From Candidatus Phoenicimicrobium oleiphilum (lineage in GTDB: Bacteria; Atribacterota; Phoenicimicrobiia; Phoenicimicrobiales; Phoenicimicrobiaceae), in NCBI GenBank assembly GCA_039638295.1, contig JBDIWJ010000005.1, positions 416-64,415 of the forward strand: a DNA stretch of 64,000 nt, given 5' to 3'. The notes beneath the pieces are model-generated. The model was given only the letters and a program-made list of their open reading frames with translations, made no database searches and was not told the origin of the DNA. The position numbers and the translations under genes are program-made. This document shows, in pieces, positions 15,147 to 44,492 of the stretch (its first letter is position 1; every line of letters starts with the position of its first letter).

Positions 15147-15160
15147 TTTTACCCTTCTCC

Positions 15161-15691: not shown

Positions 15692-15702
15692 CTTTTCCCT
15701 CC

Positions 15703-16032: not shown

Positions 16033-16065
16033 TTATATACTCTCCTTTTTAAATTCCTTATTATT

Positions 16066-17424: not shown

Positions 17425-17504
17425 AATATATATCTCCTCACTTCTACAAGATTGTCAGGGGAGTGAGCTCCCCTCCCATTCTTAATACATTTTTCAATCT
17501 AATT

Positions 17505-18322: not shown

Positions 18323-18561
18323 CCATAAATATGATGTAAGAATAAAGATGTGAGAATAAAATTGAAGATAAACAGTTAGTTTATACAAGATTATGCATAT
18401 AGTGTGCTGTAGACAATTTTATAGTAAATTATAATTCTTGTTATAATTGAATTGTAGGGGCACAATGAATTGTGCCCCCTGTTTCATCGTTTTTCATTTA
18501 TATTGTGGGAACAAGGAATCGTACCCTTATATTAACATTTTGTTTTCCGTTTAGATTACAT

Positions 18562-20400
18562 TCATGCATCTAAAAACTTAAAAGGTGAAATTATATCTTC
18601 TCCAAATTTTGCTCTGGTTTCTTTTAACCTTTCAGTCTGTGCTTCTAATTCTTTAGTAAAGGCGGTAGGCATCTTAATATTTTTAAATATCTTGTTCATC
18701 CTTTCCATCTTCTCTATGTATTTTGTCACTCTTAAGGAGAACTGCTGAATATATTCGTCCATAGTGTAATCTTTGTCCAGCTCACTGATAAATAAACTTT
18801 TTAAATCTTCATATTTGGGTATTCGGCCTACCGGAGTTTCGATGGCTTCAAATTCGTGGTGCACTCTCCCTTCAGCCCAGAGTACCCAGACTTTCTTATC
18901 AAGTTTACCGTTCAGGTAATTACCAGACTCATCTTTTAAGAAATAATTGGTAGCATAAATTTTGGGGACCTCTTTGAGGCCATCGGCAAATTTCAGGTGA
19001 TTCTCTATGTAGGTATTAAACGGTACCGAGATAAAGTCAAGATTGGCCATCGGGTTATGTTTCCTTATCCCCTGGGCACCGATAGTAGCAGAGGTAGTCT
19101 CTGATTCTACGGTAGCCCCAAGAAAGACTCCTTGGAACCAACTGAGAGATTCTACTATTGGCATAGTGGTATCAGAATCTCTTCCTCCATAGATAATGGC
19201 CTGCACAGGTACACCTGCCGGGTCATCAGCCTTGGGGTCAATATTTTCTAAGGCATTTAGTCTTATGGTGTATCTGGCATTTTTATGGGAACAATCGATA
19301 ACATTACCTTTCTTATCTTTTTTACCTTTATACCACTCTCCTGAATGATTAATGCCTTTATCCGGTATATCTTTACCCATACCCAACCAATAAGGGACAC
19401 CATCATTAACAAGTACATTAGAAAAAATAAGTTCTCTCGGAGTGGTTAGGGCTTTATATATCAAGGGATCATCCTGGGGATTTACATCCTGAATGATACC
19501 AAATATACCATTTTCCACATTTACTGCTTTTATTATCCCGTTAATTTTTTTGAGGTAGGCGATATCATCACCAACTACGGTCTGCCCAGGAATCATGGCA
19601 GTGCTGGTCTTCCCACAGGCACTGGGGAAGGCACCAGTAAAATAGGTAATACGGCCTTTTGGACCATGGACACCCATTATAAACATATGCTCAGCTAACC
19701 ACCCTTCTTCATTGGCCTTCTTGATAGCTAATCGGAAGGCTAACTTTTTTAGTCCCAGAGAGTTACCAGCATATTGATTATTCACTGAATAGACCTTATT
19801 CTCTTCCAGGTCGATGTAGATCCTCCGTTTATCTATATCTTTACTCACACCATTTTCTAATCTTCCCGCTGAATGAAGAAAGAAAAAGAAATCAGGAGAT
19901 CCATCAAGTTTTTTAAATTGTTCATAGGCTGGCCGATAGAGGATATCTTCACTATGGGCGACATAAGCCGAATCAGTAATCTGTAAGGCTAAAATCGAGA
20001 ACATAGAATTAGTAGGACCAAGAGAAAAGAACCTTACTAACATCTCTTTCCCAGCCATACTTCCGTCAAGAAGAGAATATATTTCTTTTAGGCCTTTATC
20101 TTTTTCTATCGAATTTACCTTTATCCCCCAATCTACATCTTTAGATAATAAATATCTGGTATTGGCTTTATCTCTGGCCTGATCATAATAACCATCAAAG
20201 TGAATGGTATGTCCTCCCATCTTTAACTTCTTTTCTTCACCATTGATTAAAGCCAATTCTCTTACATAGGTAATATCTTCTTTTGAGTCAGTTATCACAG
20301 TTACCTTTTCCGGTTTACAGAGCTGGATGGCCTCTTGAACCACCTTTGTAACATATTGATTATTTAGTTCTTCTAACTTCCGTAAATAATTTTTATCCAT
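18562..20400 (-). CDS. pckG: Phosphoenolpyruvate carboxykinase (GTP)
   Basis: GTP-PEPCK kinase-1a motif GAFPSACGKTSTAM, 612 aa. Confidence 0.9.
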   Translation of the reverse strand: MDKNYLRKLEELNNQYVTKVVQEAIQLCKPEKVTVITDSKEDITYVRELALINGEEKKLKMGGHTIHFDGYYDQARDKANTRYLLSKDVDWGIKVNSIEKDKGLKEIYSLLDGSMAGKEMLVRFFSLGPTNSMFSILALQITDSAYVAHSEDILYRPAYEQFKKLDGSPDFFFFLHSAGRLENGVSKDIDKRRIYIDLEENKVYSVNNQYAGNSLGLKKLAFRLAIKKANEEGWLAEHMFIMGVHGPKGRITYFTGAFPSACGKTSTAMIPGQTVVGDDIAYLKKINGIIKAVNVENGIFGIIQDVNPQDDPLIYKALTTPRELIFSNVLVNDGVPYWLGMGKDIPDKGINHSGEWYKGKKDKKGNVIDCSHKNARYTIRLNALENIDPKADDPAGVPVQAIIYGGRDSDTTMPIVESLSWFQGVFLGATVESETTSATIGAQGIRKHNPMANLDFISVPFNTYIENHLKFADGLKEVPKIYATNYFLKDESGNYLNGKLDKKVWVLWAEGRVHHEFEAIETPVGRIPKYEDLKSLFISELDKDYTMDEYIQQFSLRVTKYIEKMERMNKIFKNIKMPTAFTKELEAQTERLKETRAKFGEDIISPFKFLDA

Positions 20401-20453: not shown

Positions 20454-21836
20454 TCAGCTTCTATATACTTTTACAATCTCTCCATATCCCGGAGAGACAG
20501 TTATTTCACCATCATCAAAGACCACTTTCCCTCTAACAATAGTCTTTTCCGGCTTTCCATATACTCCCCATCCGTCATATACCAGGGCGCTGTCTCTACA
20601 TTTGGTAAACATTTTATCTTTGGAAATAATGTCTTTTTTGTTAGGATCAAAAATTACAAAATCTGCATCTGAACCAAGAGCAATTACCCCTTTTTTGGGA
20701 TACAAACCAAACACTTTTGCCGGATTTTCACAGATAAGCTCAACCATTCTTTCTAATTTAATCTTTCCTTCTTTTACTGCAGTAAAAAGTAAAGGTAATC
20801 TGGTTGATAAACCTGGAAATCCTGCAGGCGGAACAAAGATATCTTCACTCCCTCTTTCTTTTTCTTCTTTAGTATAAGGAGCATGGTCACTTCCGATAAT
20901 ATCGACACTTCCGTTATTTACCATTTCCCACATTCCCTGCCGCTTTTCTTCGCTCCTTAAGGGAGGATTAACCTTGGCAAATACTCCCAATTTATTAAGA
21001 ACATCCTCATTAAGAAACAAATAATGGGGACAAGTCTCTGCAATAGCATATACCCCTTTATATTTTGCTTCATTTACTAATTCTACTACTTCCGGAGTGG
21101 TAATATGACATATTTCAACTTTCGCCCCAGTCTTTTCGGCAAAGAGTAAAATCTTAGAAGCAGTTTCTATTTCTACGACTGGTGGGCGAGATCTACCATG
21201 GTAAATTGGAGAAGTTTTTCCTTCGCTTCTTAGCTTAGCTATATTCTTATTAACCATATCATTATTTTCTGCATGAAAACCGATCATCACACCGGTTTGG
21301 GCTACTTTTTCCATAAGCTCATATTGGTCTCCGGTGTTAGGAGCAGTTAGACCGATAAATTCTTCTCTTCTCCCTGGAGGAGCCTCATGTAAAAAAGTTT
21401 TAAAGGCAACAATCCCTGACTTTGCACAGGGGATAATATCATCTAGACAATCTGTCCCCGCTGCTCCAAAAAAAGCTATATCGACTACAGTTTCTTTATC
21501 CGCAATATCCATTCTTCTTTTTACTATTTCGGGAGAATGTGGTGGAGGAACAGAGATGGGCATTTCAATTATAGTGGTAACCCCGCCCAAGGCTGCATCT
21601 TTTGAACCGCTTTCAAAGGTCTCTCTTTCATCATGTCCGGGAGCTCGGATATGTACATGAGGATCAACGGTTCCGGGTAAAACCATTTTTCCTTCTGCAT
21701 CGATAAATTTTTTAGCCTCTAATTTTTCTTTACTTATTGTGGCAATTATTCCATCTTTCACTCCTACATAACAATCTATTAATCTGTCATCTATAAATAT
21801 CTTGTCCGACTTTATTACGAGGTCAAATTTGTTCAT
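20454..21836 (-). CDS. pyrC: Cyclic amidohydrolase of the dihydroorotase/allantoinase/dihydropyrimidinase family (PyrC-like)
   Basis: Metal-binding GTVDPHVHIRAPG motif, 460 aa; immediately downstream of pyrB. Confidence 0.65.
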   Translation of the reverse strand: MNKFDLVIKSDKIFIDDRLIDCYVGVKDGIIATISKEKLEAKKFIDAEGKMVLPGTVDPHVHIRAPGHDERETFESGSKDAALGGVTTIIEMPISVPPPHSPEIVKRRMDIADKETVVDIAFFGAAGTDCLDDIIPCAKSGIVAFKTFLHEAPPGRREEFIGLTAPNTGDQYELMEKVAQTGVMIGFHAENNDMVNKNIAKLRSEGKTSPIYHGRSRPPVVEIETASKILLFAEKTGAKVEICHITTPEVVELVNEAKYKGVYAIAETCPHYLFLNEDVLNKLGVFAKVNPPLRSEEKRQGMWEMVNNGSVDIIGSDHAPYTKEEKERGSEDIFVPPAGFPGLSTRLPLLFTAVKEGKIKLERMVELICENPAKVFGLYPKKGVIALGSDADFVIFDPNKKDIISKDKMFTKCRDSALVYDGWGVYGKPEKTIVRGKVVFDDGEITVSPGYGEIVKVYRS

Positions 21837-21999
21837 ATTTTATCCTCCGCATCGTTACTTTTCAACATTCCAGTTTATATTATGCCTAATATCTCTTGGG
21901 GGCACGATGCATTGTGTCTCTACACTACTGTTTTATTTACATTATAAGTTATAATTATATTATAGCTTAATACTGCTTCGTGGAAAAATTATTATTGGA

Positions 22000-22923
22000 T
22001 TATGCTTTACCAGTAACCAATGCCAAAAGTGCCATTCTAATGTAAAGGCCATTGTGGGCCTGTCTAAAATATGCAGCCCCTTCATAATCATCAACATCAG
22101 TAGATATTTCATCTACTCTCGGTAGGGGATGAAGAATAGTAATTCCCTCTTTAGCCTGATCAATCAGGGCTCTATTGATAACATATGAACCTTTAAGTTT
22201 TTCATATTCAGCAGGATCTTCAAACCGTTCTCTTTGTATCCGGGTTACATAAACAATATCACTTATCGCTAAAGCTTCTCTTAAATCTTCAGTCTCTTCA
22301 ATTTCTGCTCCTCGACTTCTTAGGTCAGCAGTTATCTTTTCAGGCATTTGTAAAGCTTTTGGGGAAACAAAGATCATCTTATTCTTATAGAGAGCCATAA
22401 AATAACCTAAAGAATGAACAGTTCGGCCATATTTTAAGTCACCAACAAAGGCAACTGTATGTCCTCCCAAAGCTCCCTTTTCTTTGCGTATGGTGTATAT
22501 ATCTAAAAGAGCCTGGGTAGGATGTTGACCACTTCCGTCTCCAGCATTAATAAAAGGGTGAACAGCATTGTCAGCAGCAATCTGGGCAGAGCCCTTCATA
22601 GGATGACGCATAACAATGACATCAGCATAACCATCTACTGTCCTAATAGTATCGGCTAAAGACTCTCCCTTAGCTACTGAAGAACTAGCTGGATTAGCTA
22701 CAGTAATTACTCGTGCTCCTAATCTATTGGCAGCAGTTTCAAAGGAAAGTCGAGTTCTGGTACTCGGTTCGAAAAATAAAGTAGCCACTACTTGCCCTTC
22801 CATATTTCTGATTATATTTCCATCCTTAACTTGTTTTTCAAAATTTGCTGCAGTATTCATAATTATATTAAGCTCCTGAGTTGAAAACTGAGCAGTGTTT
22901 AATATATCTTTTCCTTTAAGCAT
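22000..22923 (-). CDS. pyrB: Aspartate carbamoyltransferase catalytic chain
   Basis: STRTRLSFETA, KGESLADTI, VMRHP, GDGSGQHPTQALLD, VGDLKYGRTVHSL, HPLPRVDEI match E. coli PyrB block-for-block. Confidence 0.85.
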   Translation of the reverse strand: MLKGKDILNTAQFSTQELNIIMNTAANFEKQVKDGNIIRNMEGQVVATLFFEPSTRTRLSFETAANRLGARVITVANPASSSVAKGESLADTIRTVDGYADVIVMRHPMKGSAQIAADNAVHPFINAGDGSGQHPTQALLDIYTIRKEKGALGGHTVAFVGDLKYGRTVHSLGYFMALYKNKMIFVSPKALQMPEKITADLRSRGAEIEETEDLREALAISDIVYVTRIQRERFEDPAEYEKLKGSYVINRALIDQAKEGITILHPLPRVDEISTDVDDYEGAAYFRQAHNGLYIRMALLALVTGKA

Positions 22924-22963
22924 ATTATCATCTCCTTTTAATTTAATTTTTATAACTCTTACC

Positions 22964-23935
22964 CTAATCTTTTTCTATAATTGTTCCACTCTGCCCCCGA
23001 AAAGCTTCCAAAGCCTTATCAAGTGAGGCAATTATAGCTTTTTCCCCTCCATTTTCTAAAAATCGTAAGCAAGCTTTGACTTTTGGACCCATACTTCCCG
23101 CCATAAAATGCCCTTCATCAAAATATTGTTTTGCTTCTTTAAAATTTATTCTGCTTAAGCCTTTCTCATCAGGTCTACCATAATTAATTTTTGCTTCTTC
23201 TACATCGGTAAGAATTAAAAATATATTAGCACCTACTATTTCTGCTAATCTTTCTCCTGCAAGATCTTTGTCTATTACTGCCTCAATTCCTTGATAATTT
23301 CCTTCTTCATCTTCTAAAACGGGTATACCTCCCCCACCTGAAGCAATAACAATTACCCCCACATCAACTAATTTTTTAATAACCTCGGCTTCTAAATTTG
23401 ATATAGGATCAGGGGAAGGAACAGTTCTCCTCCAACATCTCTCACCATTTGGTTTAACCTTTTTGATTATATATTGTGGATTATTCTTTTTTATCTCTTT
23501 TGCTTCTTCTTCGGTTAAAAAATTCCCTACCGGCTTGGAAGCTTTATCCCCGAAAAACTCTGGATCATTTTTATCTACCAAGACTTGATTAATTATAGCA
23601 CACACTGGTATCTCAAGATCCATTTTTTTAAGATGATTCCTTAATGTTTGTTGTAACATATAACCAATTTGCCCCTGAGTCATTGCCCCTACTACATCCA
23701 TAGGATGAGCGGGAACAACATCTTCTGCTAATTTTTGCTGTACCATTAAATTGCCAACCTGGGGGCCATTCCCGTGAGTTATTATTAGTCGATCTTCTTT
23801 GCCAAGATTCTTTACAATTTCAGCAATGTACTTTGTTGTTTTCCAACAATTCCTGAATTGTTCTTCTGAAGTTCCTTTTTCATCTGCCTGTTTTATTGCA
23901 TTTCCACCTAAGGCTATTAAAACTACTTTCGACAT
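22964..23935 (-). CDS. arcC: Carbamate kinase
   Basis: N-terminal VVLIALGGNAI...THGNGPQVG amino-acid-kinase fold characteristic of carbamate kinase, 323 aa. Confidence 0.85.
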   Translation of the reverse strand: MSKVVLIALGGNAIKQADEKGTSEEQFRNCWKTTKYIAEIVKNLGKEDRLIITHGNGPQVGNLMVQQKLAEDVVPAHPMDVVGAMTQGQIGYMLQQTLRNHLKKMDLEIPVCAIINQVLVDKNDPEFFGDKASKPVGNFLTEEEAKEIKKNNPQYIIKKVKPNGERCWRRTVPSPDPISNLEAEVIKKLVDVGVIVIASGGGGIPVLEDEEGNYQGIEAVIDKDLAGERLAEIVGANIFLILTDVEEAKINYGRPDEKGLSRINFKEAKQYFDEGHFMAGSMGPKVKACLRFLENGGEKAIIASLDKALEAFRGQSGTIIEKD

Positions 23936-24004
23936 TTTCTTGCTACTCTCCTCCTAAATTTATTCTTGTATTAGTATTATACAAAATTATGAATTGCCTT
24001 ACTG

Positions 24005-24784
24005 TTAATTAACCTTCTTTAAAATACTTTCCTCTTTATATCCTAACTTTTTTGATATTTCCTGTGCTGAATCGGTAACGATTTTAATAAATCTTTCCAT
24101 ATTGCTCGAAGACATTCTTTTAGATAATCCTGTTATAGTAATGCTAGCTATTGTTTTTCCGTTAATATTCTTTATAGGGGCAGCAACTGCTTTTATTCCT
24201 TCTTCAAGTTCCTCGTCGCAAATTGCATAACCCTTATTTTTTATATCTAATAAGTGCATTATTAATCTTTTGGGCTTTGTAATTGTCTTTGAGGTATATT
24301 TTAAGAATTGTTTTTTATTAATAATTCTTCTTATATCTTCTAGTGGTTGATTAGCTAAAAGAATTTTTGAACTAGCGGCACAATGAAAAGGCATTCCCCT
24401 GCCAATTTCAACAAAAAGTTGAGTGTTTGTGTTTCTACTCGAAGAAATTGAATCAATACAAATCCCCTGGTCTTTTCTCCAAATAGTTAAGAAAGTAGTT
24501 TCTTGAGTTTCATTACAAACTTTTCTTAAAATAGGTTTGGCAATTTGTCTAATATCGAAGGATCTTAAAAGGGAATTAGAGTATTTGAGTAAGCGTAACC
24601 CGATTTTATACCTTGAAGTATCATTTTCTTTTTCTACTATTGAATATTTTAATAAATCCTTTAATATTCGATGAACTGTACTTTTTGGTAAATCTAATGC
24701 CAAGCTCAATTCTGTTATTCCCACATCTTTCTTTACATCGCTTAAATGATCCAAAATTTTTATTATTTTTTCTAATGATTTCAT
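24005..24784 (-). CDS. IclR-family transcriptional regulator
   Basis: N-terminal HTH (ILDHL...GITELSLALDLPKSTVHRIL) plus C-terminal IclR effector domain. Confidence 0.85.
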   Translation of the reverse strand: MKSLEKIIKILDHLSDVKKDVGITELSLALDLPKSTVHRILKDLLKYSIVEKENDTSRYKIGLRLLKYSNSLLRSFDIRQIAKPILRKVCNETQETTFLTIWRKDQGICIDSISSSRNTNTQLFVEIGRGMPFHCAASSKILLANQPLEDIRRIINKKQFLKYTSKTITKPKRLIMHLLDIKNKGYAICDEELEEGIKAVAAPIKNINGKTIASITITGLSKRMSSSNMERFIKIVTDSAQEISKKLGYKEESILKKVN

Positions 24785-24989: not shown

Positions 24990-26042
24990 TTACTCACCAC
25001 CAGTAATAATTTTTAACTTTCGGGGAGCTAAAATTAACCATACTTCGTCGCCAGAACTTAAACTCATACCGACAAATATTTCCTTAGGCAGTTTTACTTT
25101 TAAAGAATTTTTCCCTGTTGTAACAGTACAACAGACTGTTGAAGATGATTCCTCAATTTCACTTAATCTTCCTATGACCCTGTTTACATCAGGTCCGGGA
25201 GGTCTGGCATCAGAAAGATAAATATCTTCCGGTAAAATTGCTACTTTTTTTATTTTCTCTCTTTCACTGTAAACCACTAGAGTAATATCACCACACTTTA
25301 CCTCTACTAACCCAAAACCCAATCTATTACAATAATCACAGTTTAAAATATTGGGTGCTCCAATAAAATCATTAACCGCTTCTGTAGGATGAAAAAATAT
25401 TTCCTTAGGGGATCCTATTTGCTCTACTCTGCCTTTGTCAAGTACCGCAATTCTTTCTGCCATTTCTTCTGCCTCATAAAAATTATGAGTAACATAAATA
25501 GTGGTAATACCCAATCTTTTCTGTAACATTTTAAACTCTGTCCTGAGATATTTAGAAGTACGATAATCCAAACTGTTCATCGGTTCATCAAGAAGTAAAA
25601 TGAGAGGAGAATTGGCTAAAGCCCGGGCCAAAGCTACCCTCTGTTTCTCGCCCCCGCTTAATTCTTTAGGATAACGAGAAGATAAATGTTTTATCTTCAT
25701 TATTTGAAGGAGTTCTTCAACTCTCGCTTTTATTTCATTTTTAGGTCTTTTTTGCATCTTCAAACCATAAGCAATATTAGCAGATACATCAAGGTGAGGA
25801 AATAAATTCAACTCTTGAAATAAGTAACCTATTCTTCTCTGATTAGCGGGCAACATATCTACCGGTTTATTGTCAAACAATACAGAACCTTCGTAGTCAA
25901 TTAAACCAGCGATGATATTTAATAAGGTGCTTTTCCCTGCCCCATTGGGCCCCAACAACACTAACAATTCTTTATCAAATATTTCCAAGTTAACATCTTT
26001 ACAAACATATTTAGAAATGTTTTTAAGCGTGATAGATGACAT
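24990..26042 (-). CDS. ABC transporter ATP-binding protein with C-terminal TOBE/MOP-like domain
   Basis: Walker A GPNGAGKST, signature LSGGEKQRVALARAL, ~100-aa C-terminal OB-like extension. Confidence 0.8.
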   Translation of the reverse strand: MSSITLKNISKYVCKDVNLEIFDKELLVLLGPNGAGKSTLLNIIAGLIDYEGSVLFDNKPVDMLPANQRRIGYLFQELNLFPHLDVSANIAYGLKMQKRPKNEIKARVEELLQIMKIKHLSSRYPKELSGGEKQRVALARALANSPLILLLDEPMNSLDYRTSKYLRTEFKMLQKRLGITTIYVTHNFYEAEEMAERIAVLDKGRVEQIGSPKEIFFHPTEAVNDFIGAPNILNCDYCNRLGFGLVEVKCGDITLVVYSEREKIKKVAILPEDIYLSDARPPGPDVNRVIGRLSEIEESSSTVCCTVTTGKNSLKVKLPKEIFVGMSLSSGDEVWLILAPRKLKIITGGE

Positions 26043-26043
26043 A

Positions 26044-26805
26044 TTACCTCCATCGATTAGTTAACTTATTTTCTAAGAAAGCAAAAAATTTCTCAAAAGA
26101 AAGACACATTACTCCCAAAACTATTAGACAGACTATAATAATATCTATACGAATAAGACTCTCAGCCTTCATCATCAAGGCACCAATCCCGGTAGGAATA
26201 GCTACCATCTCAGCTGCTATTATCACTCGCCAGGCCATCCCTGATTCTAATCTTAATCCGGTAAAAATATTAGGCAAAGCAAGAGGAATGACCACTGTAC
26301 TTAAAATTTTTAGGTCAGACGCACCTAATATCCTGGCCACAAAGATATAATTTTTGTCCACATTTTTAATTCCGGTAACTGTATTGTAAAGAATGGGAAA
26401 GAAGGAACAGATAAATATTATGGTAATCGGTAAGATTTCACCAATACCAAACCACAACATCAATAAAGGAAGCCAACCCAGAGCAGGAATAGGATAAATT
26501 AAGCTTATTATAGGGTTTAATGACCTATTAACCAGATTATTCCACCCCATTATAATTCCGATAAATAGCCCGGTAATAGAACCCGCAAAAAAACCTATGA
26601 GGACTCGAATTAAACTGCTCACGAAATTACTCCCCAATACCCCGCTGATTGTTAAATGCCAAAATTCTGTTAACACAACAGAAAAAGGAGGAAAAAAGAA
26701 TTGACCAGGGATTAAATTCAATCGGGCAATTATCTCCCATATTCCCAGAAATGTGATAATGGGGATTATCTCCCATTTTAATTTAAATATTTTATATCTT
26801 TTCAT
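26044..26805 (-). CDS. ABC transporter permease (NitT/TauT-family-like BPD_transp_1)
   Basis: 253 aa, 6 predicted TM segments, EAA-like loop region. Confidence 0.75.
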   Translation of the reverse strand: MKRYKIFKLKWEIIPIITFLGIWEIIARLNLIPGQFFFPPFSVVLTEFWHLTISGVLGSNFVSSLIRVLIGFFAGSITGLFIGIIMGWNNLVNRSLNPIISLIYPIPALGWLPLLMLWFGIGEILPITIIFICSFFPILYNTVTGIKNVDKNYIFVARILGASDLKILSTVVIPLALPNIFTGLRLESGMAWRVIIAAEMVAIPTGIGALMMKAESLIRIDIIIVCLIVLGVMCLSFEKFFAFLENKLTNRWR

Positions 26806-28729: not shown

Positions 28730-28767
28730 CTTAATCTTAACCTCCTTTTCCCCTTTTATATTTACTT

Positions 28768-36638: not shown

Positions 36639-38948
36639 CTACTTTTCAAAGTACTCTTTTTTTAAGGCTCGAATTATTTTTTCCGGGGTTGCGGGCAAAT
36701 TCTTAATTCTTACACCGATAGCATCATAAATAGCATTTAAAATAGCCGGGGCTATAATACTACAAGCAGGCTCGCCAATCCCTTTAGCACCATAAGGTCC
36801 TAATCCCCCGCCAGACTCTACTAAAATAGCCTTTACATCCGGCACATCTGCTGCAGTAGGAATAATATACTCGGAAAAAGAGGGAGTCATAGTAATCCCC
36901 TTTTCTATAATCACTTCTTCCATTAGGGCATACCCCATTCCATATATTGAACCACCTTCCATCTGACCTTCTACACTTAACGGGTTAATGGCTTTACCCA
37001 CATCATAGCAGGTAATAAGTTTTAAGATTTCTACCTGACCGGTTTCTGTATCTACCGCCACTTCTACCGCCTGGGCACCAAAAGTAAAATCAGGGAAGGT
37101 CATTCCTCTAATATTTGATAAATCAGGTACAATAGTAAATGGAGCATTAAACTGTACCTCACAGAATAATTCAATTCCGGCAGTATTACAAGCTTTTATT
37201 ACTTCAACTAAAGGCAAGTATTGTGATTGGTTATATTTTACAATTACTTTCTCTTCAATAATATCTAATTTATCTGGATTAACATTCAACAATTCTGCAG
37301 CTTTACTTATAATTCGTTTTCTTATCTTTCGAGCAGCTTTAAGGGTAGCATTTCCAGACATATAAGTTTGTCTGGTAGCAGTAGTAGTCCCGGCAAGTGG
37401 TGTTAGTGCTGTATCACTATAATATATTTTTATCTTAGACATAGGTATGCCTAATTCTTCAGCGACAATCTGACAAAGTAAAGAAACCTGTCCACCTCCT
37501 AAATCAGGAATCCCGGATCTGATTAATACACTTCCATCTGACTCTAACCTTACATAACATCGAGAAGAATCATGGAGAAAAGTCATTCGACCATAACTCA
37601 TTAATCCTATAGCTAATCCTCGACCGACCTTCCTATTCTTATCTTCACATTTAGCAAGTTCACCCAGTGCCTCCCAGGCTTTCTCGGCAACTTCGGGAAG
37701 AGCAACATAAGTTTTAAAGACCTGACCAGTTGTAGATAAAGATTTTCCCGTAGTGAGACAATTTCTACGTCTAATTTCTAAGGGGCTTATATTGAGCTTA
37801 TGAGCTAATTCATCCATTAAACTCTCATACACTACATTTGGCTGAGGAGCCCCAAACCCCCTATTTGCACTGGTAAATGTATTATTAGTTAATACACAAT
37901 AAGTTCTAACCTTAACATTGGGAATACAATAGGGACCAGCTGCATTAACTGTTGCATATAAATTCACCCAGGGACTTAAATAAGGATAAGCTCCGGCATC
38001 AGAAATTAATTCCGCATTTAAAGCAACCAGTTTACCATCTTTTTTAGCCCCTACCTTATATTTCATAACAAAAGGATGCCTTTTGCTATGACATAAAATA
38101 GATTCCTCGCGAGTATAGAATAACCTCACGGGCTTCTTGGTTTTCCAGGTAAGAAGAGCTAAATAAGCCTCCACGGTAATATCCTCTTTGCCACCAAAAC
38201 CTCCGCCCATCATCGTACCTATATAGCGAACCTTATTATGGGATAAGCCCAGAACATCAGCAACATCTCTAAAATGCTCGATTACCTGAGAGCCCACCCT
38301 GATATTAATTACTCCATAATCATCTATCCAGGCAATACCCCCCTCAGTTTCCAGATAAGCATGGTCAACAAAAGGCACTTTATAGGTGTCTTCAATTATT
38401 ATATCAGCTTCAGCAAACCCCTTTATAATATCTCCCTGACTACAGCCAAATTGTCCTATTATATTACTATTATTCTCTCCCACCAAATAGGCTCCAGGTT
38501 TCATAGCTTCAACTGGATCAAAGACTCCTGGAAGGGTTTCATAATTTACTTCAATTAAATCTAAAGCTTTCTCGGCAATTTCTTCTGTATCAGCAGCAAC
38601 CAGAGCTACTGCCTCTCCCATAAATCTAACTTTCTTATCTGCTAAAACCCGGTATAACCCCTCAAATCCCTTACCTACTTCCGAACTCTGGCCAAATCTG
38701 GTTACAGTTTCATTATGAGGAACATCTTTAGCAGTTAAAACAGCTCGCACCCCATTTAATTTCTCTGCTTTCGCGGTATTTATAGAAATAATCTTAGCAG
38801 CTGGATATTTGCTGCGAAGCACTTTGGCATATAACATCCCGGGTAAAGAAAAATCATCAGCATATTTAAGTTCCCCGGTTACCTTTGCCCAGGCATCATC
38901 TCTGGGTATTGGTTTACCTACTATTTTAAATTCAGACATAAGCTTCAC
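36639..38948 (-). CDS. Xanthine dehydrogenase-family molybdopterin-binding large subunit (enzyme 1)
   Basis: Ald_Xan_dh a/b-hammerhead N-terminus and Mo-binding domains (GGGFGGK), 769 aa. Confidence 0.85.
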   Translation of the reverse strand: MKLMSEFKIVGKPIPRDDAWAKVTGELKYADDFSLPGMLYAKVLRSKYPAAKIISINTAKAEKLNGVRAVLTAKDVPHNETVTRFGQSSEVGKGFEGLYRVLADKKVRFMGEAVALVAADTEEIAEKALDLIEVNYETLPGVFDPVEAMKPGAYLVGENNSNIIGQFGCSQGDIIKGFAEADIIIEDTYKVPFVDHAYLETEGGIAWIDDYGVINIRVGSQVIEHFRDVADVLGLSHNKVRYIGTMMGGGFGGKEDITVEAYLALLTWKTKKPVRLFYTREESILCHSKRHPFVMKYKVGAKKDGKLVALNAELISDAGAYPYLSPWVNLYATVNAAGPYCIPNVKVRTYCVLTNNTFTSANRGFGAPQPNVVYESLMDELAHKLNISPLEIRRRNCLTTGKSLSTTGQVFKTYVALPEVAEKAWEALGELAKCEDKNRKVGRGLAIGLMSYGRMTFLHDSSRCYVRLESDGSVLIRSGIPDLGGGQVSLLCQIVAEELGIPMSKIKIYYSDTALTPLAGTTTATRQTYMSGNATLKAARKIRKRIISKAAELLNVNPDKLDIIEEKVIVKYNQSQYLPLVEVIKACNTAGIELFCEVQFNAPFTIVPDLSNIRGMTFPDFTFGAQAVEVAVDTETGQVEILKLITCYDVGKAINPLSVEGQMEGGSIYGMGYALMEEVIIEKGITMTPSFSEYIIPTAADVPDVKAILVESGGGLGPYGAKGIGEPACSIIAPAILNAIYDAIGVRIKNLPATPEKIIRALKKEYFEK

Positions 38949-39032
38949 CTTCTTCCCGTTTTTCTAAAACTTGACATAGGACGGTTATATGTCGGGTTTT
39001 ATCCGCCCCGCATTTTGTTCTAATAGATTTTT

Positions 39033-39104
39033 GTCATTGCGAACGAAGTGATGAAGCAATCTCAATTCCGAGATTGCCACGCTCCCTACGGTCGTTCGCA
39101 ATGA
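39033..39104. repeat. Nested-palindrome intergenic element (outer 13-bp IR GTCATTGCGAACG/CGTTCGCAATGAC; inner hairpin GCAATCTC-AATTCC-GAGATTGC)
   Basis: Read directly; related to element at 27864-27960. Confidence 0.5.
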
Positions 39105-39158
39105 CTTTATAGACAGGCTCTATGAAAACAATGAACGCCTGTCCTACAGAATTTGAAT

Positions 39159-39635
39159 TTATTTTGATCTTTGATTTTCTACAGCTACTGCATAAATGGC
39201 ATCAACAATCTTTTTATATCCAGTACACCTGCATAGATTTCCAGATATCGCTTTTTTAATTTCCTCTCTATTAGGAATAGGATTTTGGTCAAGATAATTT
39301 TTTGCAGTAATTATCATTCCTGGTGTACAAAAGCCACATTGTATTGCCCCATAATTTACAAAACTTTTCTGGAGTTTCCTGCCAAGTTCAAATTTTTCCA
39401 TACCCTTAACAGTCCATACTTCTTTATGATTAGCTTGAAGAGCTAAGGTGATGCAGGATTTAACGGCTTTCTCATTTAGAATAACTGTGCAAGTACCACA
39501 CTCCCCTTTTTCACAGCCACATTTCACCTCGGTAAAACCATTTCGACGTAAAAATTTTAATAGAGATTCTTCTGCTTTGGCAGTCGTACTTATTTTCTCA
39601 CCATTTACGGTTAAATCTATTTTATATTCTTCCAT
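39159..39635 (-). CDS. (2Fe-2S)-binding small subunit of molybdenum hydroxylase 1
   Basis: CGCEKGECGTCTV plant-type and CGFCTPG second 2Fe-2S motifs, 158 aa. Confidence 0.85.
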   Translation of the reverse strand: MEEYKIDLTVNGEKISTTAKAEESLLKFLRRNGFTEVKCGCEKGECGTCTVILNEKAVKSCITLALQANHKEVWTVKGMEKFELGRKLQKSFVNYGAIQCGFCTPGMIITAKNYLDQNPIPNREEIKKAISGNLCRCTGYKKIVDAIYAVAVENQRSK

Positions 39636-39755
39636 CTACACTCTCCTTTTTAGTAAGTAATAAGTAATGGGCGATGAGTGATAAGTAATTAGTAACAAGT
39701 AATAAGTTATATGCAATTCGTGTATCGACTAATTGGTTAATTATTTTCTCTCCTA

Positions 39756-40631
39756 TTAATTGGTAAATTGGTGAATCGATGAATCGGCTAATTTTTTAAA
39801 GGCCCGTTTGAATAAGAGCCCGGAGATATATCGGCGATATTCTTCAGATGCTCGAATATCACTAATAGGTTTAACTTCTTCGCGCACTCTATCTATAGCC
39901 TCTTCAACCAATTTATCATTTATTTCTTTATTTTTTAAAAAACTCTCTGCACCAGTCAATCTTACGGGCGTAGGAGCTACAGAGCCAGCAGCAATCCGAA
40001 TTTGATTAATTTTATTTTGTCTAACTTCTAAATTTACTGCTACCGTTGCAATGGAAATAGCCATCGCTTTCCTCTGTCCTATTTTAATAAAATAGCCATT
40101 TTTATTTACATCACTTTGTTCAAATTCGATTCCCACAATCATTTCATCATCCTGCAAGATTGTTTCACCTGGGCCCACAAAAAAATCTTTTAGCTTAACT
40201 TCTCTCTTATCTCTAGTGCTCTCTATTTTTATAAGAGCATCAAGAGTTAAAAGTGGTATGGCTATATCAGCTGCAGGTGAAGCAGTTACTAAATTTCCAC
40301 CTATAGTGGCAGTGTTCCTTACCAGTGGGTCAGCAAATTCTTGGGCAGCTTGGGTTAATACCTTATACTCTTTTGATGTAATATCTGAATAAATCAATTC
40401 ATTAATAGTAGTGAGGGGACCTAAGAATATTTTATCTTCTTTTTGGTAAATACCCTTTAATTGTTCGATATTAGTAATATCTATTAAAACCTTAGCTTTT
40501 ATTTCTTTATCCCTTATATTGGGTAAAACATTGGAACAACCTGCAACTATACAAGCATTAGACTTCTCTTTTTGTAAAATTTCTAAAACTTCATCTTTTG
40601 TCTTAGGAGAAATATATTTAAATAGGCTCAT
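39756..40631 (-). CDS. FAD-binding (CO-dehydrogenase-flavoprotein-like) medium subunit of molybdenum hydroxylase 1
   Basis: FAD_binding_5 N-terminus (AGCSNVLP) plus CO_deh_flav_C, 291 aa. Confidence 0.8.
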   Translation of the reverse strand: MSLFKYISPKTKDEVLEILQKEKSNACIVAGCSNVLPNIRDKEIKAKVLIDITNIEQLKGIYQKEDKIFLGPLTTINELIYSDITSKEYKVLTQAAQEFADPLVRNTATIGGNLVTASPAADIAIPLLTLDALIKIESTRDKREVKLKDFFVGPGETILQDDEMIVGIEFEQSDVNKNGYFIKIGQRKAMAISIATVAVNLEVRQNKINQIRIAAGSVAPTPVRLTGAESFLKNKEINDKLVEEAIDRVREEVKPISDIRASEEYRRYISGLLFKRAFKKLADSSIHQFTN

Positions 40632-40726
40632 TTTCCCCTCCTTTTATTTGGTCAATCCTTTAATTGTTTTCTCATACTATTTAGTTGATCGGTTTCTTGT
40701 ATTAATTATATTAATTGGTAAATTGG

Positions 40727-41203
40727 CTAATCGCTTTTTTGTTCTGCTACGCAAGACTTAATCGCCTTTACTATTTGCACATATCCGGTACAACGACAAA
40801 GATTTCCTCTCATATAATCCCTGATCTCGTTTTCGGTAGCATTAGGATTTTCTTTTAATAATGCCGTGGCAGTTAATATCATTCCCGGCGTACAAAAACC
40901 ACATTGCACAGCTCCATTCTCTAAAAACGCTTTCTGCACGGGATGTAGTTCATCACCCTTTGCCAGTCCTTCAATAGTGGTAATTTCTTTACCATTAACA
41001 GTTACCGCTAAAGTAAGACAAGATAAAACTGGTTCACCATCCAACAAAACGGTACAGGCTCCACATTCCCCAATACCACAACCATATTTACTCCCGGTTA
41101 GATATAAATCATTTCTTATTATATTAATTAAAAGGTCATTTGGTTTTACAAAAATCCTTCTCTTTTTACCATTAACGATAAACTCTATCTCTATTTTTTT
41201 CAT
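40727..41203 (-). CDS. (2Fe-2S)-binding small subunit of molybdenum hydroxylase 2
   Basis: CGIGECGACTV and CGFCTPG motifs, 158 aa. Confidence 0.85.
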   Translation of the reverse strand: MKKIEIEFIVNGKKRRIFVKPNDLLINIIRNDLYLTGSKYGCGIGECGACTVLLDGEPVLSCLTLAVTVNGKEITTIEGLAKGDELHPVQKAFLENGAVQCGFCTPGMILTATALLKENPNATENEIRDYMRGNLCRCTGYVQIVKAIKSCVAEQKSD

Positions 41204-41206
41204 ACC

Positions 41207-42106
41207 TTACAACTCACCTCCAGCTCTACCCCAGGCAAGTTTAAGGGCGTCTTCTGTCATTACCCGAGCTAGCTCAGTTCTATACTCAGCAGTAGAGCGA
41301 ATATCATCGATAGGTTTAATCACCTCTGAGGCTTTCTTCGCAGTTTTGATAATGAGATCATTGTTTATTACTTGCCCTCTTAAGAGCTCTTCTGCCTTTT
41401 TAGCCCGAACAGCTTTAATAAAAACTGAACCGAGTACTATTCGGCAATCTTTGCAGATCTCTCCTTCTCTTTTCAGGCAGACAGCTAAATTTATCTTGGC
41501 AATATCAGCTTTTACTCGACCTTTTTTTAAAAAAGCACCACCTGAATTTTTAGATATTTCAGGGATAATCACCTGGGTAAGCAGCTCGTCTCTCTTGATA
41601 ATAGTTTTCCCTACTCCAGTTATAAAATCTTCTACCAGAACTGTGCGTTCCCCCCTCTTACTGACCAATTTTAATTTTGCCTCATAGGCAATTAAGGGCG
41701 GAATAGTATCACCGGCTGGAGATGCATTGCAAATATTACCAGGCATTGTAGCCATATTTCTTATAGCAATTGCTGCCATAGACTTAATGCTTTCATATAA
41801 GGCAGGGTATTTTTCTCTGACTTTTTCTATCTTTTCAATGTGGGATAAAGGAACAGCTGCTCCTATCCTTAATCCCGCATCTGTATCAATAAATTTAAGT
41901 TCAGGAATTTCTTTTATACTTATCAGATAATCAGCATCAAGACCAATAGTCTTCATCTTAACTAAAAGGTCAGTACCCCCGGCTAATATCCTGGTATTCT
42001 TATCTTGATATCTATAAAGCAAGTCCAGGGCTCCAGCTAAAGTTTTAGGAGCAAAATATTCAAATTCTTGGGTTAAAATCTTGGTATTGTTAGTCAACCT
42101 TATCAC
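41207..42106 (-). CDS. FAD-binding medium subunit of molybdenum hydroxylase 2
   Basis: FAD_binding_5/CO_deh_flav_C architecture, 299 aa. Confidence 0.8.
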   Translation of the reverse strand: MIRLTNNTKILTQEFEYFAPKTLAGALDLLYRYQDKNTRILAGGTDLLVKMKTIGLDADYLISIKEIPELKFIDTDAGLRIGAAVPLSHIEKIEKVREKYPALYESIKSMAAIAIRNMATMPGNICNASPAGDTIPPLIAYEAKLKLVSKRGERTVLVEDFITGVGKTIIKRDELLTQVIIPEISKNSGGAFLKKGRVKADIAKINLAVCLKREGEICKDCRIVLGSVFIKAVRAKKAEELLRGQVINNDLIIKTAKKASEVIKPIDDIRSTAEYRTELARVMTEDALKLAWGRAGGEL

Positions 42107-44492
42107 CTACCCTTCTCCGACTTTCTTTTTCTTCTTCTTCCTTTCTTTTAAGAGCTTTCAGAACTTTTTCTGGAGTAATAGGCAGGTCATAAAATCTTAT
42201 CCCTATGGCATTATAAATCGCGTTAGCTACGGCAGAGCCTACAGAACTCAAAGCTGCTTCTCCTATCCCCTTTGCTCCAAATGGACCGGTAGGTTCATAA
42301 GTATGAGCAGAACGTACAATAATATTGTCTACTTTGGGCATCTCTACAGTAGTCGGAATCTTATAATCAGTTATCAACCCGTTACATTCTAATCCACCAC
42401 TATTTAAATCATATTTGGTCTCTTCTAAAAGACTGAATCCCAGTCCCCTACTAAAAGCACCAATTATTTGCCCTTCCCATAAATCAGGGTTGATGATAGT
42501 TCCTGAATCACCCATAATTACTGCTCTGGGGACTTTAACTTCTCCTGTTTTCGTATTTACTTCCACCTCCACAAAGTGGGTGATAAAACAGGGAGGACAA
42601 TTTTTCTGTCTTAGGGTAGATGTATAAGCGATAGCCCCCCAACTGGTAATATGGGCATGTTCTGCTATTTCTCCCAAGGTCATATAATTCTCGGGAATTT
42701 CTCGAGGGTAAATTACTGCCTGACCAAGCTTTTTATTACAGGCTAATTTTAAATTTTCCGGTAAATCTTTGAAAAGAGTCGCAGCGTAATTTAAAAGCAT
42801 CTCTTTGACTTTTTCAGCCACAAATTTTACAGCTCCACATCCGCAATATACCCCGCGAGTGGCATGAGTATTGACGTCAAAGACTGTGGTACGAGTATCT
42901 ACCTCATTATAAATACCAACTTTCTCATACGGTACCTTTAAAACTTCAGCCACCACTTTAGCTACGGCATCCCAGGTACCTCCCCCATGATCCATTAAGG
43001 CAGTCAATACATCTACTGAACCATCTTCATTAATTTTAATGGTTGCCCCTGAATAATCAATTACCTCACCAGGATTAGGACCACCAGTACCGGAAGTATG
43101 AAACCCTCTGGCTACGCCGATACCTCTCCTTAACTCTCCCTTCTTTTTAGAAGGGGGAGTTCTCTTCTCCCATTCAGCAAGTTTTGCTCCTTCAATCAAC
43201 ATCTCTTCCACTCCGCAACTCCTGATAATGGATCTTACTGTCGGACCCTGACCCCAAAATTCATCCCCTTTTCCTACATAATTTTTAAGACGAAGTTCAA
43301 TGGGATCTATATCCAATTTTTCAGCCAAAATATCCATTAAACTCTCTACTGCAAAATTTATCTGAGGATTTCCATATCCTTGCATTGCACAAGTAGGTAC
43401 TTTATTGGTATAGACAGCAGTTCCTTCATATTTTATGTTTTTCCACTTATAGAGAGAGGCGAACCATCCAGCCACACAACCTAAATAAGGATAAGCTTGA
43501 ATATTATGACCACCAATCTCCACCCAGACCCGACAGTGGGCAGCAGTTAATGTCCCATCTTTCTTAGCGCCGATTTTCAATATAGTTTTTAGAGGATATT
43601 TGGAATGATCGTAAATATCATCCTCTCTGGTAGATACCAATTTTACCGGTCTTTTTGCTTTTAAAGCTAAAGCAACACATATTGGAGTAATAGAATTCAT
43701 CTGGATACTTGAGCCAAAAGAACCGCCCAAAGTAATTCTCTTAACATTCACTTTATTTAAAGGAATATTAAAAATGTTTCCCAGGAGAATACGGACATTA
43801 TGAATCCCTTGAGAAGTTGTCCAGACGGTTATTCCTCCATCTGCTTCAGGGACACATACTGCAGACTTTGTCTCTAATTGCATATGATAAATTCTTTGAG
43901 TGTTAAAGGTTCTCTCTACAACTACCTCTGCCTCTTTAAAACCTTTATCAATATCGCCAACATCGATATTCCTCTCACAAGCTATATTATTCTTAATATC
44001 TACTTTTTCTTCACCTAAGTACACACAATCATATATGGAAGGTGCATCATCTTTTATAGCCTCATCAAGATCTATTAGTGGCTTCCATTTTTTACCCCAT
44101 TCTATTTTTATCTTTTTGAGGGCTGCAAATGCCTCTTCCTCTGTTTCAGCAGCACAGGCAGCAATAGCCTCTCCTATATGACGAACTTTATCTTTGGGTA
44201 AGACTGTTCTATCTCGATAGGTCTTTTCTGGTATGCTAACTATCCGCTCATTATATAAATAATCAGGGACATCATCAGGACCGATGCATATTGCCCCCAT
44301 CTTTTCTGCTTCTGTATAATCAATCTTTTTAATCTCGGCATGAGGGTAAGGGCTACACAGAACTACTGCGTATAGCTGACCAGGAATATTTATATCGGAA
44401 GAATACAACTCTTTGCCGGTTACTTTACCAATATTCTTTATGTCGAACTGTTTTCCAATAAATTCATATTGCTGTTTTTCCAATAAGATCAC
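42090..44492 (-). CDS. Xanthine dehydrogenase-family molybdopterin-binding large subunit (enzyme 2)
   Basis: 800 aa, aldehyde oxidase/xanthine DH Mo-binding domains, overlaps medium subunit gene. Confidence 0.85.
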   Translation of the reverse strand: MILLEKQQYEFIGKQFDIKNIGKVTGKELYSSDINIPGQLYAVVLCSPYPHAEIKKIDYTEAEKMGAICIGPDDVPDYLYNERIVSIPEKTYRDRTVLPKDKVRHIGEAIAACAAETEEEAFAALKKIKIEWGKKWKPLIDLDEAIKDDAPSIYDCVYLGEEKVDIKNNIACERNIDVGDIDKGFKEAEVVVERTFNTQRIYHMQLETKSAVCVPEADGGITVWTTSQGIHNVRILLGNIFNIPLNKVNVKRITLGGSFGSSIQMNSITPICVALALKAKRPVKLVSTREDDIYDHSKYPLKTILKIGAKKDGTLTAAHCRVWVEIGGHNIQAYPYLGCVAGWFASLYKWKNIKYEGTAVYTNKVPTCAMQGYGNPQINFAVESLMDILAEKLDIDPIELRLKNYVGKGDEFWGQGPTVRSIIRSCGVEEMLIEGAKLAEWEKRTPPSKKKGELRRGIGVARGFHTSGTGGPNPGEVIDYSGATIKINEDGSVDVLTALMDHGGGTWDAVAKVVAEVLKVPYEKVGIYNEVDTRTTVFDVNTHATRGVYCGCGAVKFVAEKVKEMLLNYAATLFKDLPENLKLACNKKLGQAVIYPREIPENYMTLGEIAEHAHITSWGAIAYTSTLRQKNCPPCFITHFVEVEVNTKTGEVKVPRAVIMGDSGTIINPDLWEGQIIGAFSRGLGFSLLEETKYDLNSGGLECNGLITDYKIPTTVEMPKVDNIIVRSAHTYEPTGPFGAKGIGEAALSSVGSAVANAIYNAIGIRFYDLPITPEKVLKALKRKEEEEKESRRRVGDKVD

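Follow-up and report, generated by a model that had tools for sequence, protein, structure and literature searches.

The 64,000-nucleotide (nt) stretch of contig JBDIWJ010000005.1 analyzed here (the window), from the JS1-type Atribacterota organism Candidatus Phoenicimicrobium oleiphilum, carries a cluster encoding an IclR-family regulator, a carbamate kinase (CK), the catalytic chain of an aspartate carbamoyltransferase (ATCase), and a cyclic amidohydrolase (AMH). On balance, we think that this cluster serves as a catabolic, ATP-yielding "reverse pyrimidine" module, possibly an amphibolic one, in which phosphorolysis of N-carbamoyl-L-aspartate would be followed by ATP formation through CK. 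We favor this reading because an importer, a B-type dihydroorotate dehydrogenase (DHOD-B), ring-opening hydrolases, ATCase, CK, and aspartate-consuming enzymes form one same-strand run under an IclR regulator in the fuller operons of relatives. It draws further support from the close adjacency of the transcarbamylase and CK genes, co-transcription with CK being a published hallmark of catabolic transcarbamylases (PMC6022934), from the precedent of the 2,8-dioxopurine pathway, and from the separate pyrimidine gene set of a cultured member of the phylum, Atribacter laminatus.

The order IclR-arcC-pyrB-amidohydrolase, which a preliminary description of this DNA had placed at positions 20454 to 24784, was recovered as four open reading frames (ORFs) on the minus strand, the strand of every gene in the cluster region; GC content across the window is about 36%. 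The cluster is headed by the IclR-family regulator (24005..24784; 259 amino acids [aa]; PF09339 and PF01614), followed by CK (arcC; 22964..23935; 323 aa), ATCase (22000..22923; 307 aa), and AMH (20454..21836; 460 aa), and then by a GTP-dependent phosphoenolpyruvate (PEP) carboxykinase (PEPCK; 18562..20400; 612 aa; NF003253, 639 bits against a cutoff of 504). The intergenic gaps between IclR, CK, ATCase, AMH, and PEPCK measure 69, 40, 163, and 53 nt, in that order. CK passes the arcC equivalog model TIGR00746 over its full length (371.6 bits; cutoff, 358.25). As had been described, it is CK and not carAB that lies 5' of pyrB; a tblastn search of the 64-kb window yielded no homologue of PyrI, CarA/B, or PyrD/K/E/F. 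The regulator has BhcR, KdgR, and PcaR as its best NCBIfam matches, each under cutoff. At least 17 loci of the Atribacterota have an IclR gene directly 5' of ATCase or of CK-ATCase, as do orthologous loci of Bacillota, Anaerolineae, and Spirochaetes. Among the matches listed, an identical ATCase is present on 15 metagenome contigs from oil-reservoir and subsurface samples, and at least 120 homologues share at least 84% identity; the cluster genes can therefore be taken as real. Among species representatives, Ca. Sediminicultor tertius (93% identity) and UBA4082 (92%) come closest.

Judged by its residues, the window transcarbamylase is a genuine ATCase. It resembles Escherichia coli PyrB (46% identity, 310 aa), scores 379 bits on TIGR00670 (cutoff, 237), and has a complete set of catalytic and aspartate-binding residues (S52, T53, R54, T55, K84, R105, H134, Q137, R167, R229, Q231, and HPLP), with the motifs STRT(R), HPTQ, HPLP, and RIQ. 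ATCases are diagnosed by HP[LG]P plus RxQ and ureidoglycine carbamoyltransferases by HPLA plus AIA/AIS/SIA (Barba et al., Table 1, PMC4016543); the window protein, with HPLP and RIQ, does not fall among the pseudo-ATCases. In an alignment of 80 homologues, the active-site columns vary only at position 56, which is Arg, Ser, or Met, and at position 267, which is Phe in locus L063; all others are invariant. Models of the knotted, YgeW-type transcarbamylases give only 43 to 45 bits, over the N-terminal domain, which ruled out membership in that group. The earlier identification of a bona fide PyrB without pyrI thus stands, all motifs being present and no PyrI-like ORF occurring in the window.

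The amidohydrolase is a different matter. Its binuclear-metal ligands are all there (H60, H62, K146, H188, H244, and D317), a set common to the whole superfamily and not specific to dihydroorotases (DHOases). The top NCBIfam match is ErtD, the hydantoin-5-propionate amidohydrolase (365; cutoff, 650), followed by allantoinase (TIGR03178, 352.8; cutoff, 357.85), the archaeal DHOase model (327; cutoff, 452), and D-hydantoinase (323; cutoff, 393). AMH passes the subfamily-domain model pyrC_multi (304; cutoff, 279), falls under the cutoff of every DHOase equivalog model, and is accepted by no curated equivalog. Matches in the Protein Data Bank (PDB) are led by the Arthrobacter L-hydantoinase 1GKR (288 bits), with allantoinases at about 240 and the Bacillus anthracis DHOase at 198. 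For a comparison of motifs, we used E. coli AllB and HyuA and the canonical PyrC proteins encoded in pyr operons of Anaerolineales. DHOases hold the substrate carboxylate with a triad formed by the Arg of HxHxR(E)PG, the Asn of MPN, and the His of DHAPH. AMH keeps the Arg of the HxHxR-x-PG motif (Arg64, in HVHIRAPG) and the PPxGFPGL loop, and reads MPIS for MPN and DHAPY for DHAPH. The AllB sequence HTHISEPG corresponds to HVHIRAPG, so that Arg64 stands where AllB has Ser63; AllB residues N94 and S317 (numbering checked on the E. coli sequence), which we take to be substrate binding, are S95 and A319 in AMH. By these comparisons, AMH is a separate subfamily, with a DHOase-type HxHxR motif but otherwise hydantoinase-like, and is not a canonical dihydroorotase. 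The label "dihydroorotase family" used previously holds at the level of the dihydroorotase/hydantoinase/allantoinase superfamily and fails for canonical pyrC, given the subthreshold DHOase equivalogs and the best matches to ErtD and 1GKR. The substrate of AMH is most likely a carboxylated cyclic ureide, with dihydroorotate or 5-carboxymethylhydantoin as the possible ring. The hydantoin is a serious candidate because AMH shows affinity to ErtD and L-hydantoinase and because a hydantoin-family racemase gene is found directly 5' of the AMH orthologue in two relatives (L096 and L097).

To place the cluster in context, we scanned GTDB species genomes with the window ATCase, which gave 80 loci, and annotated these with the window proteins, the E. 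coli Pyr proteins, and Pfam/NCBIfam. In the Atribacterota, CK adjoins the orthologous ATCase in 14 of 27 loci, PyrK/PyrD lies 3' of ATCase in 12, and AMH does so in 6; none of the 27 has pyrE, pyrF, pyrI, or carAB within the flanks. The AMH-PEPCK adjacency is kept in six loci (L009, L011, L013, L096, L097, and L102). The fullest picture comes from a 264-kb contig of a metagenome-assembled genome (MAG; L095/L096), on which IclR-ATCase-PyrK-PyrD-LivH-LivM-LivG-LivF-LivK-FumC-malic enzyme-AspA-racemase-AMH-PEPCK form one operon, followed by GntR-AtuA and preceded upstream by XdhC-SelD-ModE-MoeA-DUF364 (two copies)-NMT1-type ABC (three genes). Its AMH is 87% identical to that of the window, its PyrD passes the DHOD-B equivalog NF005574 (359; cutoff, 269) and reaches only 124 against PreA, and its FumC (756; cutoff, 665) and AspA (676; cutoff, 510) are likewise above threshold. 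More divergent Atribacterota, with PyrD 61 to 65% identical, have IclR-(CK)-ATCase-PyrK-PyrD-LivHMGFK-SsnA/TRZ-ATZ-like amidohydrolase-fumarase (class I)-malic enzyme-AspA. Because the surroundings of this operon are unrelated among them (ribosomal-protein and DnaB genes in one, cobalamin genes in another), the run from IclR to AspA is a discrete unit.

The window represents a compact version of this arrangement, in which CK is present and the block from PyrK to the racemase is absent at the 163-bp spacer between ATCase and AMH (21837..21999). Some Atribacterota have ATCase-AMH-PEPCK without IclR and CK. In two UBA4082-like loci (L100 and L101; about 11.5 to 12.7 kb), a UPF0236 transposase lies directly 3' of IclR-CK-ATCase; this and the several alternative downstream layouts mark the region 3' of ATCase as a rearrangement hot spot. 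By its gene content, the Atribacterota set is aspartate consuming, linked to import, and controlled by IclR. Two features looked for in a catabolic module are present: the transcarbamylase is adjacent to and co-directional with CK (40 nt, same strand), and genes for making a ureide and consuming an amine share the operon (AMH and PEPCK in the window; DHOD-B, aspartase, fumarase, malic enzyme, and aspartate aminotransferase in relatives).

Beyond the Atribacterota, a neighbor-joining tree separates the ATCases into two groups. Clade A (51 to 54% identity; Anaerolineales) comprises the ATCases of canonical pyr operons, with a pyrC-like gene, pyrB, an unannotated ORF of about 285 aa, pyrE, and, slightly further away, pyrD. 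Clade B (55 to 100% identity) contains all Atribacterota together with Bacillota, Anaerolineae, Spirochaetes, Thermotogaceae, and Bipolaricaulota/Acetothermia. The PyrB phylogeny thus sets the ATCases of the canonical operons apart from that of the window, and membership in a canonical pyr operon (pyrE/pyrF/pyrD, pyrI, carAB), seen in clade A, was found neither in the 64-kb window nor, for pyrE/pyrF/pyrI/carAB, in the flanks of the 27 Atribacterota loci. Neighbors of clade B ATCases include IclR, CK, hydantoinase/DHOase-like amidohydrolases of three subtypes, an Asp/Glu/hydantoin-family racemase, aminotransferases, IOR with ADP-forming acyl-CoA synthetase (ACD), DHOD-B, Liv-type ABC transporters, and homologues of both molybdenum (Mo) hydroxylases described below. 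CK also stands beside the orthologous ATCase in Clostridiales (L023), Sediminispirochaeta (L044, L046, and L047), Leptolinea (L056), and Anaerolineales (L035). The Bacillota order is racemase-IclR-ATCase-amidohydrolase-aspartate aminotransferase of type Ic (592; cutoff, 435), and the amidohydrolase there carries the DHOase Arg, Asn, and His. In the Anaerolineales locus L035, the CK ORF (8158-8652) consists of the N-terminal half only (164 aa) and may be a pseudogene or reflect a frameshift.

From these gene identities, active-site residues, and conserved gene orders, we infer a direction of flux, a ring substrate, and an IclR effector as follows. Ring opening by AMH would turn a carboxylated cyclic ureide, L-dihydroorotate (from orotate via DHOD-B in the fuller operons) and/or L-5-carboxymethylhydantoin, into N-carbamoyl-L-aspartate. 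ATCase would then convert N-carbamoyl-L-aspartate and Pi to L-aspartate and carbamoyl phosphate, and CK would use the latter and ADP to make ATP and carbamate (CO2 plus NH3), thereby pulling the unfavorable ATCase step. Aspartate would pass to C4/C3 acids, in the window through PEPCK (oxaloacetate/PEP) and in relatives either through aspartase, fumarase, and malic enzyme together or through an aspartate aminotransferase. IclR would render the genes inducible. With no DHOD in the window, the module there would start from dihydroorotate, carbamoyl-aspartate, or 5-carboxymethylhydantoin, provided that the genome does not encode PyrK/PyrD at another site.

Several observations weigh against this catabolic reading. 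All of the steps are reversible, the ATCase equilibrium lies far toward carbamoyl-aspartate, and direction is not readable from sequence. AMH retains one of the three DHOase carboxylate-binding residues, and in the 64-kb search neither DHOD nor aspartase nor an aminotransferase lies beside the window trio. In Sediminispirochaeta, a divergent CK and an SsnA-like gene come after the clade B ATCase, and then a D-hydantoinase-like amidohydrolase, genuine pyrE (113; cutoff, 107) and pyrF (172; cutoff, 111) genes, and a fused PyrD-PyrK; an Anaerolineae locus has a phosphoribosyl pyrophosphate (PRPP) synthetase between ATCase and a Mo hydroxylase. No second pyrB came to light in a genome with the cluster, and no genome occurs twice among the 80 loci, in a scan that used query-specific peptides and was not designed for second copies. 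Finally, Bird et al. (PMC6469976) report that none of 15 single-cell genomes of JS1 contains carAB while UMP synthesis is expressed. If JS1 bacteria truly have neither carAB nor a second pyrB, the same reversible enzymes must serve biosynthesis as well, and the role would have to be amphibolic.

One rival is a purely anabolic reading, in which CK would replace carAB by making carbamoyl phosphate from CO2/NH3 and ATP, ATCase and AMH (as an unusual dihydroorotase) would start pyrimidine synthesis, and PEPCK, aspartase, and other C4 enzymes would provide aspartate. Besides the Sediminispirochaeta cluster, the reported absence of carAB from JS1 cells, and the failure to find a second pyrB, it can claim a catalytically canonical ATCase that is very highly conserved across the phylum, an AMH with the DHOase HxHxR Arg, and an ATCase-PyrK-PyrD adjacency like that of pyr operons. 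The partners of the operon speak for a different role: aspartase, fumarase, and malic enzyme stand together with an ABC importer, a racemase, and an SsnA-like hydrolase under IclR rather than pyrimidine-type control, and pyrE/pyrF are adjacent in none of the 27 Atribacterota loci. The archaeal precedent for an anabolic CK is weakened because deletion of arcC in Thermococcus kodakarensis had little effect, carbamoyl phosphate being derived from arginine (PMC13260591). In addition, the published account of A. laminatus, a cultured member of the OP9 class, gives it a canonical pyrE-pyrD-pyrK-pyrF-pyrC-pyrB cluster plus carAB (PMC7736352), so the biosynthetic genes of the phylum can be a different set. 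According to its transcriptome table (supplementary file 5), the canonical cluster of strain RT761 is RT761_00270-00275, and well-expressed extra DHOD-B genes lie elsewhere (RT761_00819, catalytic; RT761_00433, electron-transfer subunit). We regard a purely anabolic role as possible but rather unlikely. Of the two directions offered by the preliminary description, the catabolic one is thus favored by the Atribacterota context, and the anabolic one survives on the Sediminispirochaeta pyrE/F/D genes and the JS1 carAB absence, the direction itself being inferred.

Two further rivals assign the transcarbamylase another substrate. In allantoin degradation, AMH would be an allantoinase, the transcarbamylase would act on oxamate or ureidoglycine, and CK would make ATP. 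This corresponds to the published interpretation by Bird et al. (mBio 2019, PMC6469976), who took an operon of Baltic Sea Atribacteria to encode allantoinase, oxamate carbamoyltransferase, and carbamate kinase and also reported sediment allantoin and operon transcripts; the claim of allantoin utilization is repeated in bioRxiv 536078. It is in keeping with the PGAP/JGI name "allantoinase AllB" for AMH in Atribacteria MAGs, with a TIGR03178 score just below cutoff, and with the allantoinase/pseudo-ATCase/CK cluster of Rubrobacter, for which ureidoglycine carbamoyltransferase activity is proven (PMC4016543). Against it stand the HPLP and RIQ motifs in place of HPLA and AIA/AIS/SIA, the substitutions at AllB N94, S317, and Ser63, neighboring enzymes that use aspartate and not glyoxylate, and a lack, in every locus, of genes for allantoate amidohydrolase, ureidoglycolate dehydrogenase, and glyoxylate metabolism. 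Moreover, the E. coli oxamate transcarbamylase is identified in PMC11326118 as AllFGH, an unrelated family. The active-site motifs and AllB residues led us to discard the allantoin, ureidoglycine carbamoyltransferase, and oxamate transcarbamylase assignments, to which we give hardly any credence; at the level of residues, the published one appears already largely refuted.

The other rival is a purine-type reductive pathway, in which an ATCase homologue would replace YgeW on some other ureide (a diureido acid, for example) and PyrK/PyrD would be a UacX-like heterocycle reductase. The component list matches (Mo enzymes, a PF01180 reductase, SsnA-like and HyuA-like hydrolases, a PF00185 transcarbamylase, and CK), and selenium (Se)-dependent Mo-cofactor genes are adjacent. 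We nevertheless consider it improbable, as the aspartate-binding residues are invariant in 80 sequences, PyrD passes the DHOD-B cutoff and scores poorly against PreA, and the genes downstream encode aspartase, fumarase, and aspartate aminotransferase, with neither YgeX nor YgeY among the annotated genes of the window or the relatives' flanks. On chemical grounds, C4-C5-C6 of a purine cannot yield the four-carbon skeleton of aspartate. Clostridial purine fermentation via 4-ureido-5-imidazolecarboxylate and the urocanate and hydantoin-5-propionate (carbamoyl-glutamate) routes were also set aside, since both aspartate carboxylate sites are kept and the neighbors are aspartate specific.

The catabolic module may extend further upstream on the same strand. 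Two Mo-hydroxylase sets of the xanthine dehydrogenase (XDH) family occupy positions 36639..44492 on the minus strand, set 1 consisting of an 800-aa Mo subunit, FAD, and FeS subunits (40727-44492) and set 2 of FAD, FeS, and a 769-aa Mo subunit (36639-40631). Together with Se-dependent Mo-cofactor genes (YqeB, YqeC, MocA, XdhC, SclA, and YedE), they lie 4 to 20 kb upstream of the cluster. Homologues of both sets share a same-strand gene run with ATCase orthologues in Anaerolineae and Spirochaetes (L036, L043, L045, L048, L055, and L057-L059), in orders such as IclR-ATCase-Mo800-FAD-FAD-FeS-Mo769(-AMH), IclR-Mo800-FAD-FeS-ATCase, and PyrDK-Mo800-FAD-ATCase. This synteny bears out the link to an N-heterocycle hydroxylase locus suggested previously, and the Mo hydroxylases are possibly upstream steps of the same pathway. 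Matches of both Mo subunits in the PDB are distant and nondiagnostic, with 4-hydroxybenzoyl-CoA reductase at the top.

Between the cluster and the hydroxylases, positions 28001-36562 hold a complete Se-dependent Mo-hydroxylase maturation set, namely, YqeC, MocA, YqeB, XdhC, YedE, an SclA-like selenocysteine lyase, and ModE-like, MoeA-like, and DUF364 proteins; L095 adds a PF00586/PF02769 (AIRS-family) gene there, taken as a SelD-like selenophosphate synthetase. An NMT1/SsuA-type ABC transporter upstream of IclR (24990-27815, next to 28001-30425) was considered as the substrate importer, which is probably wrong, for in Atribacterota it is always accompanied by ModE, a MoeA-like gene, and DUF364 genes, also in loci that have neither IclR nor CK. 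Given this constant company and its WtpC/ModC-like ATPase, the transporter is more likely part of the Mo/Se cofactor module and may import an oxyanion (Mo/W/Se), not an organic substrate.

On the other side of the hydroxylases (44545-54080), an ADP-forming acyl-CoA synthetase is split into beta (44545-45225) and alpha (50283-51623) genes, which are separated by a Liv-type ABC operon of five genes; IorB and IorA are found upstream of the split synthetase, all on the same strand, and the block is 52 nt from the 800-aa Mo subunit. In Anaerolineales L035, a single operon reads Mo769-AMH-IorA-IorB-ACD-HisC-CK-AT-ATCase, HisC being a HisC-family aminotransferase and AT an aminotransferase. The whole same-strand island (18.5 to 57 kb) could conceivably support anaerobic fermentation of histidine or imidazole-4-acetate, a doubtful scheme that we offer as speculation. 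An amino-acid ABC importer, an aminotransferase, IorAB, and the ADP-forming acyl-CoA synthetase would yield imidazole-4-acetate and ATP; the two Se-dependent Mo hydroxylases would act at C2 and C5 to give 5-carboxymethylhydantoin; the racemase and AMH would produce N-carbamoyl-L-aspartate; and ATCase and CK would release aspartate and a second ATP. The scheme fits the upstream IorAB/ACD genes, the HisC-family aminotransferase, and the recurrent racemase. It is compatible with the core of the favored catabolic reading and differs from it only in the origin of the ring. If true, it would be the O2-independent equivalent of the aerobic route from imidazoleacetate to aspartate and would provide a natural substrate for hydantoinases.

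Intergenic elements and the region 3' of PEPCK complete the picture of the window. A palindrome, GGGGCACAATnnATTGTGCCCC, has three copies (18457-18478, 21899-21920, and 29935-29956), all intergenic, where none was expected from 100 shuffles; one is perfect and two have 3 mismatches. The perfect 10+10 copy, GGGGCACAATgaATTGTGCCCC (18457..18478), lies 3' of PEPCK and is the probable end of the transcription unit, and a degenerate copy (21899-21920) sits in the spacer between ATCase and AMH, so that the two flank the AMH-PEPCK pair on either side. The palindrome may function as a terminator or operator or represent a REP-like element. A consensus terminator scan returned no site in the cluster gaps, both minus-strand matches falling within coding sequence, and promoter, terminator, and inverted-repeat scans of AT-rich intergenic DNA gave counts at the shuffle level. 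Further 3' of PEPCK, positions 9486-18263 hold a module of GntR, AtuA, DUF4387, HD, LeuCD-like dehydratase, isopropylmalate/tartrate dehydrogenase-like, PrpD-like, and saccharopine dehydrogenase-like genes, which looks like a tricarboxylate or alkylmalate pathway; it is conserved in the JS1-type loci L001, L011, L096, and L097 and partly in L013 and L102. Three ORFs, 4630-5955 (441 aa), 7613-8857 (414 aa), and 60002-61291 (429 aa), had no NCBIfam match at the thresholds used.

If the catabolic reading is correct, a well-studied biosynthetic enzyme would also be fermentative, and ATCase would join the ornithine, putrescine, ureidoglycine, and YgeW carbamoyltransferases as energy conserving when reversed together with CK. 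Members of the Atribacterota (JS1) belong to the most abundant bacteria of deep marine sediments and oil reservoirs, and the operon is highly conserved there. Reassigning it from allantoin to rings that would yield carbamoyl-aspartate (orotate, dihydroorotate, carboxymethylhydantoin; pyrimidine or imidazole derivatives from necromass) would alter the presumed diet of JS1. Two uncharacterized Se-dependent Mo hydroxylases are, in addition, genetically tied to ATCase in at least three phyla.

Comparison with known systems places the cluster among several partial relatives. Like the Thermococcales in which CK has been called anabolic, it brings CK and ATCase together in organisms reported to lack carbamoyl-phosphate synthetase; in Thermococcales arcC is dispensable and carbamoyl phosphate comes from arginine (PMC13260591), whereas here CK lies inside an IclR-controlled operon with aspartate-catabolic genes. 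The ureidoglycine carbamoyltransferase cluster of Rubrobacter xylanophilus has the same triad of cyclic amidohydrolase, ATCase-like transcarbamylase, and CK (PMC4016543), but the window encodes genuine ATCase motifs and an AMH without the allantoinase substrate residues. In the arginine and agmatine deiminase pathways, an upstream hydrolase likewise makes a ureido compound that is phosphorolysed by a transcarbamylase co-transcribed with CK, for one ATP (PMC6022934); the present case would differ in using an ATCase with an unaltered PyrB site and in obtaining the ureide by ring opening rather than deimination. That review does not list a catabolic ATCase with the transcarbamylases whose catabolic role is established. 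The 2,8-dioxopurine (reductive uric acid) pathway comprises XdhD, YgfK/UacX, SsnA, HyuA, YgeW, YqeA, YgeY, and YgeX, with ATP formation via YgeW and YqeA demonstrated. The fuller relatives of the window share its Se/Mo hydroxylases, PyrD/DPD-like reductase, SsnA-like and hydantoinase-like amidohydrolases, transcarbamylase with CK, and lyase. They depart from it in having an ATCase in place of the knotted YgeW (45 bits), in a proposed product that is aspartate rather than 2,3-diaminopropionate, and in a ring that would be a pyrimidine- or hydantoin-carboxylate and not a purine.

Another parallel is the orotate fermentation of Clostridium oroticum, which, in the work of Lieberman and Kornberg in the 1950s, is said to have involved an NADH-linked dihydroorotate dehydrogenase, a dihydroorotase, a 5-carboxymethylhydantoinase (EC 3.5.2.4), and a ureidosuccinase (EC 3.5.1.7). 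Both routes would run from orotate through dihydroorotate and N-carbamoyl-aspartate to aspartate, with DHOD-B as orotate reductase and an enzyme that opens carboxymethylhydantoin coexisting. Our literature search found no genes described for orotate fermentation, for ureidosuccinase, or for the genetics of orotate reductase, and a search on Atribacter and carbamate kinase found nothing. Two papers on Atribacterota are silent on pyrimidines, carbamoyl phosphate, and allantoin. In the classical pathway, the last step is hydrolytic and conserves no energy, whereas here it is proposed to be phosphorolytic and coupled to CK. The cluster would thus be a new variation on the catabolic transcarbamylase-CK theme, one that revises a published functional assignment and, if correct, offers a candidate gene set for a 70-year-old fermentation of orotate.

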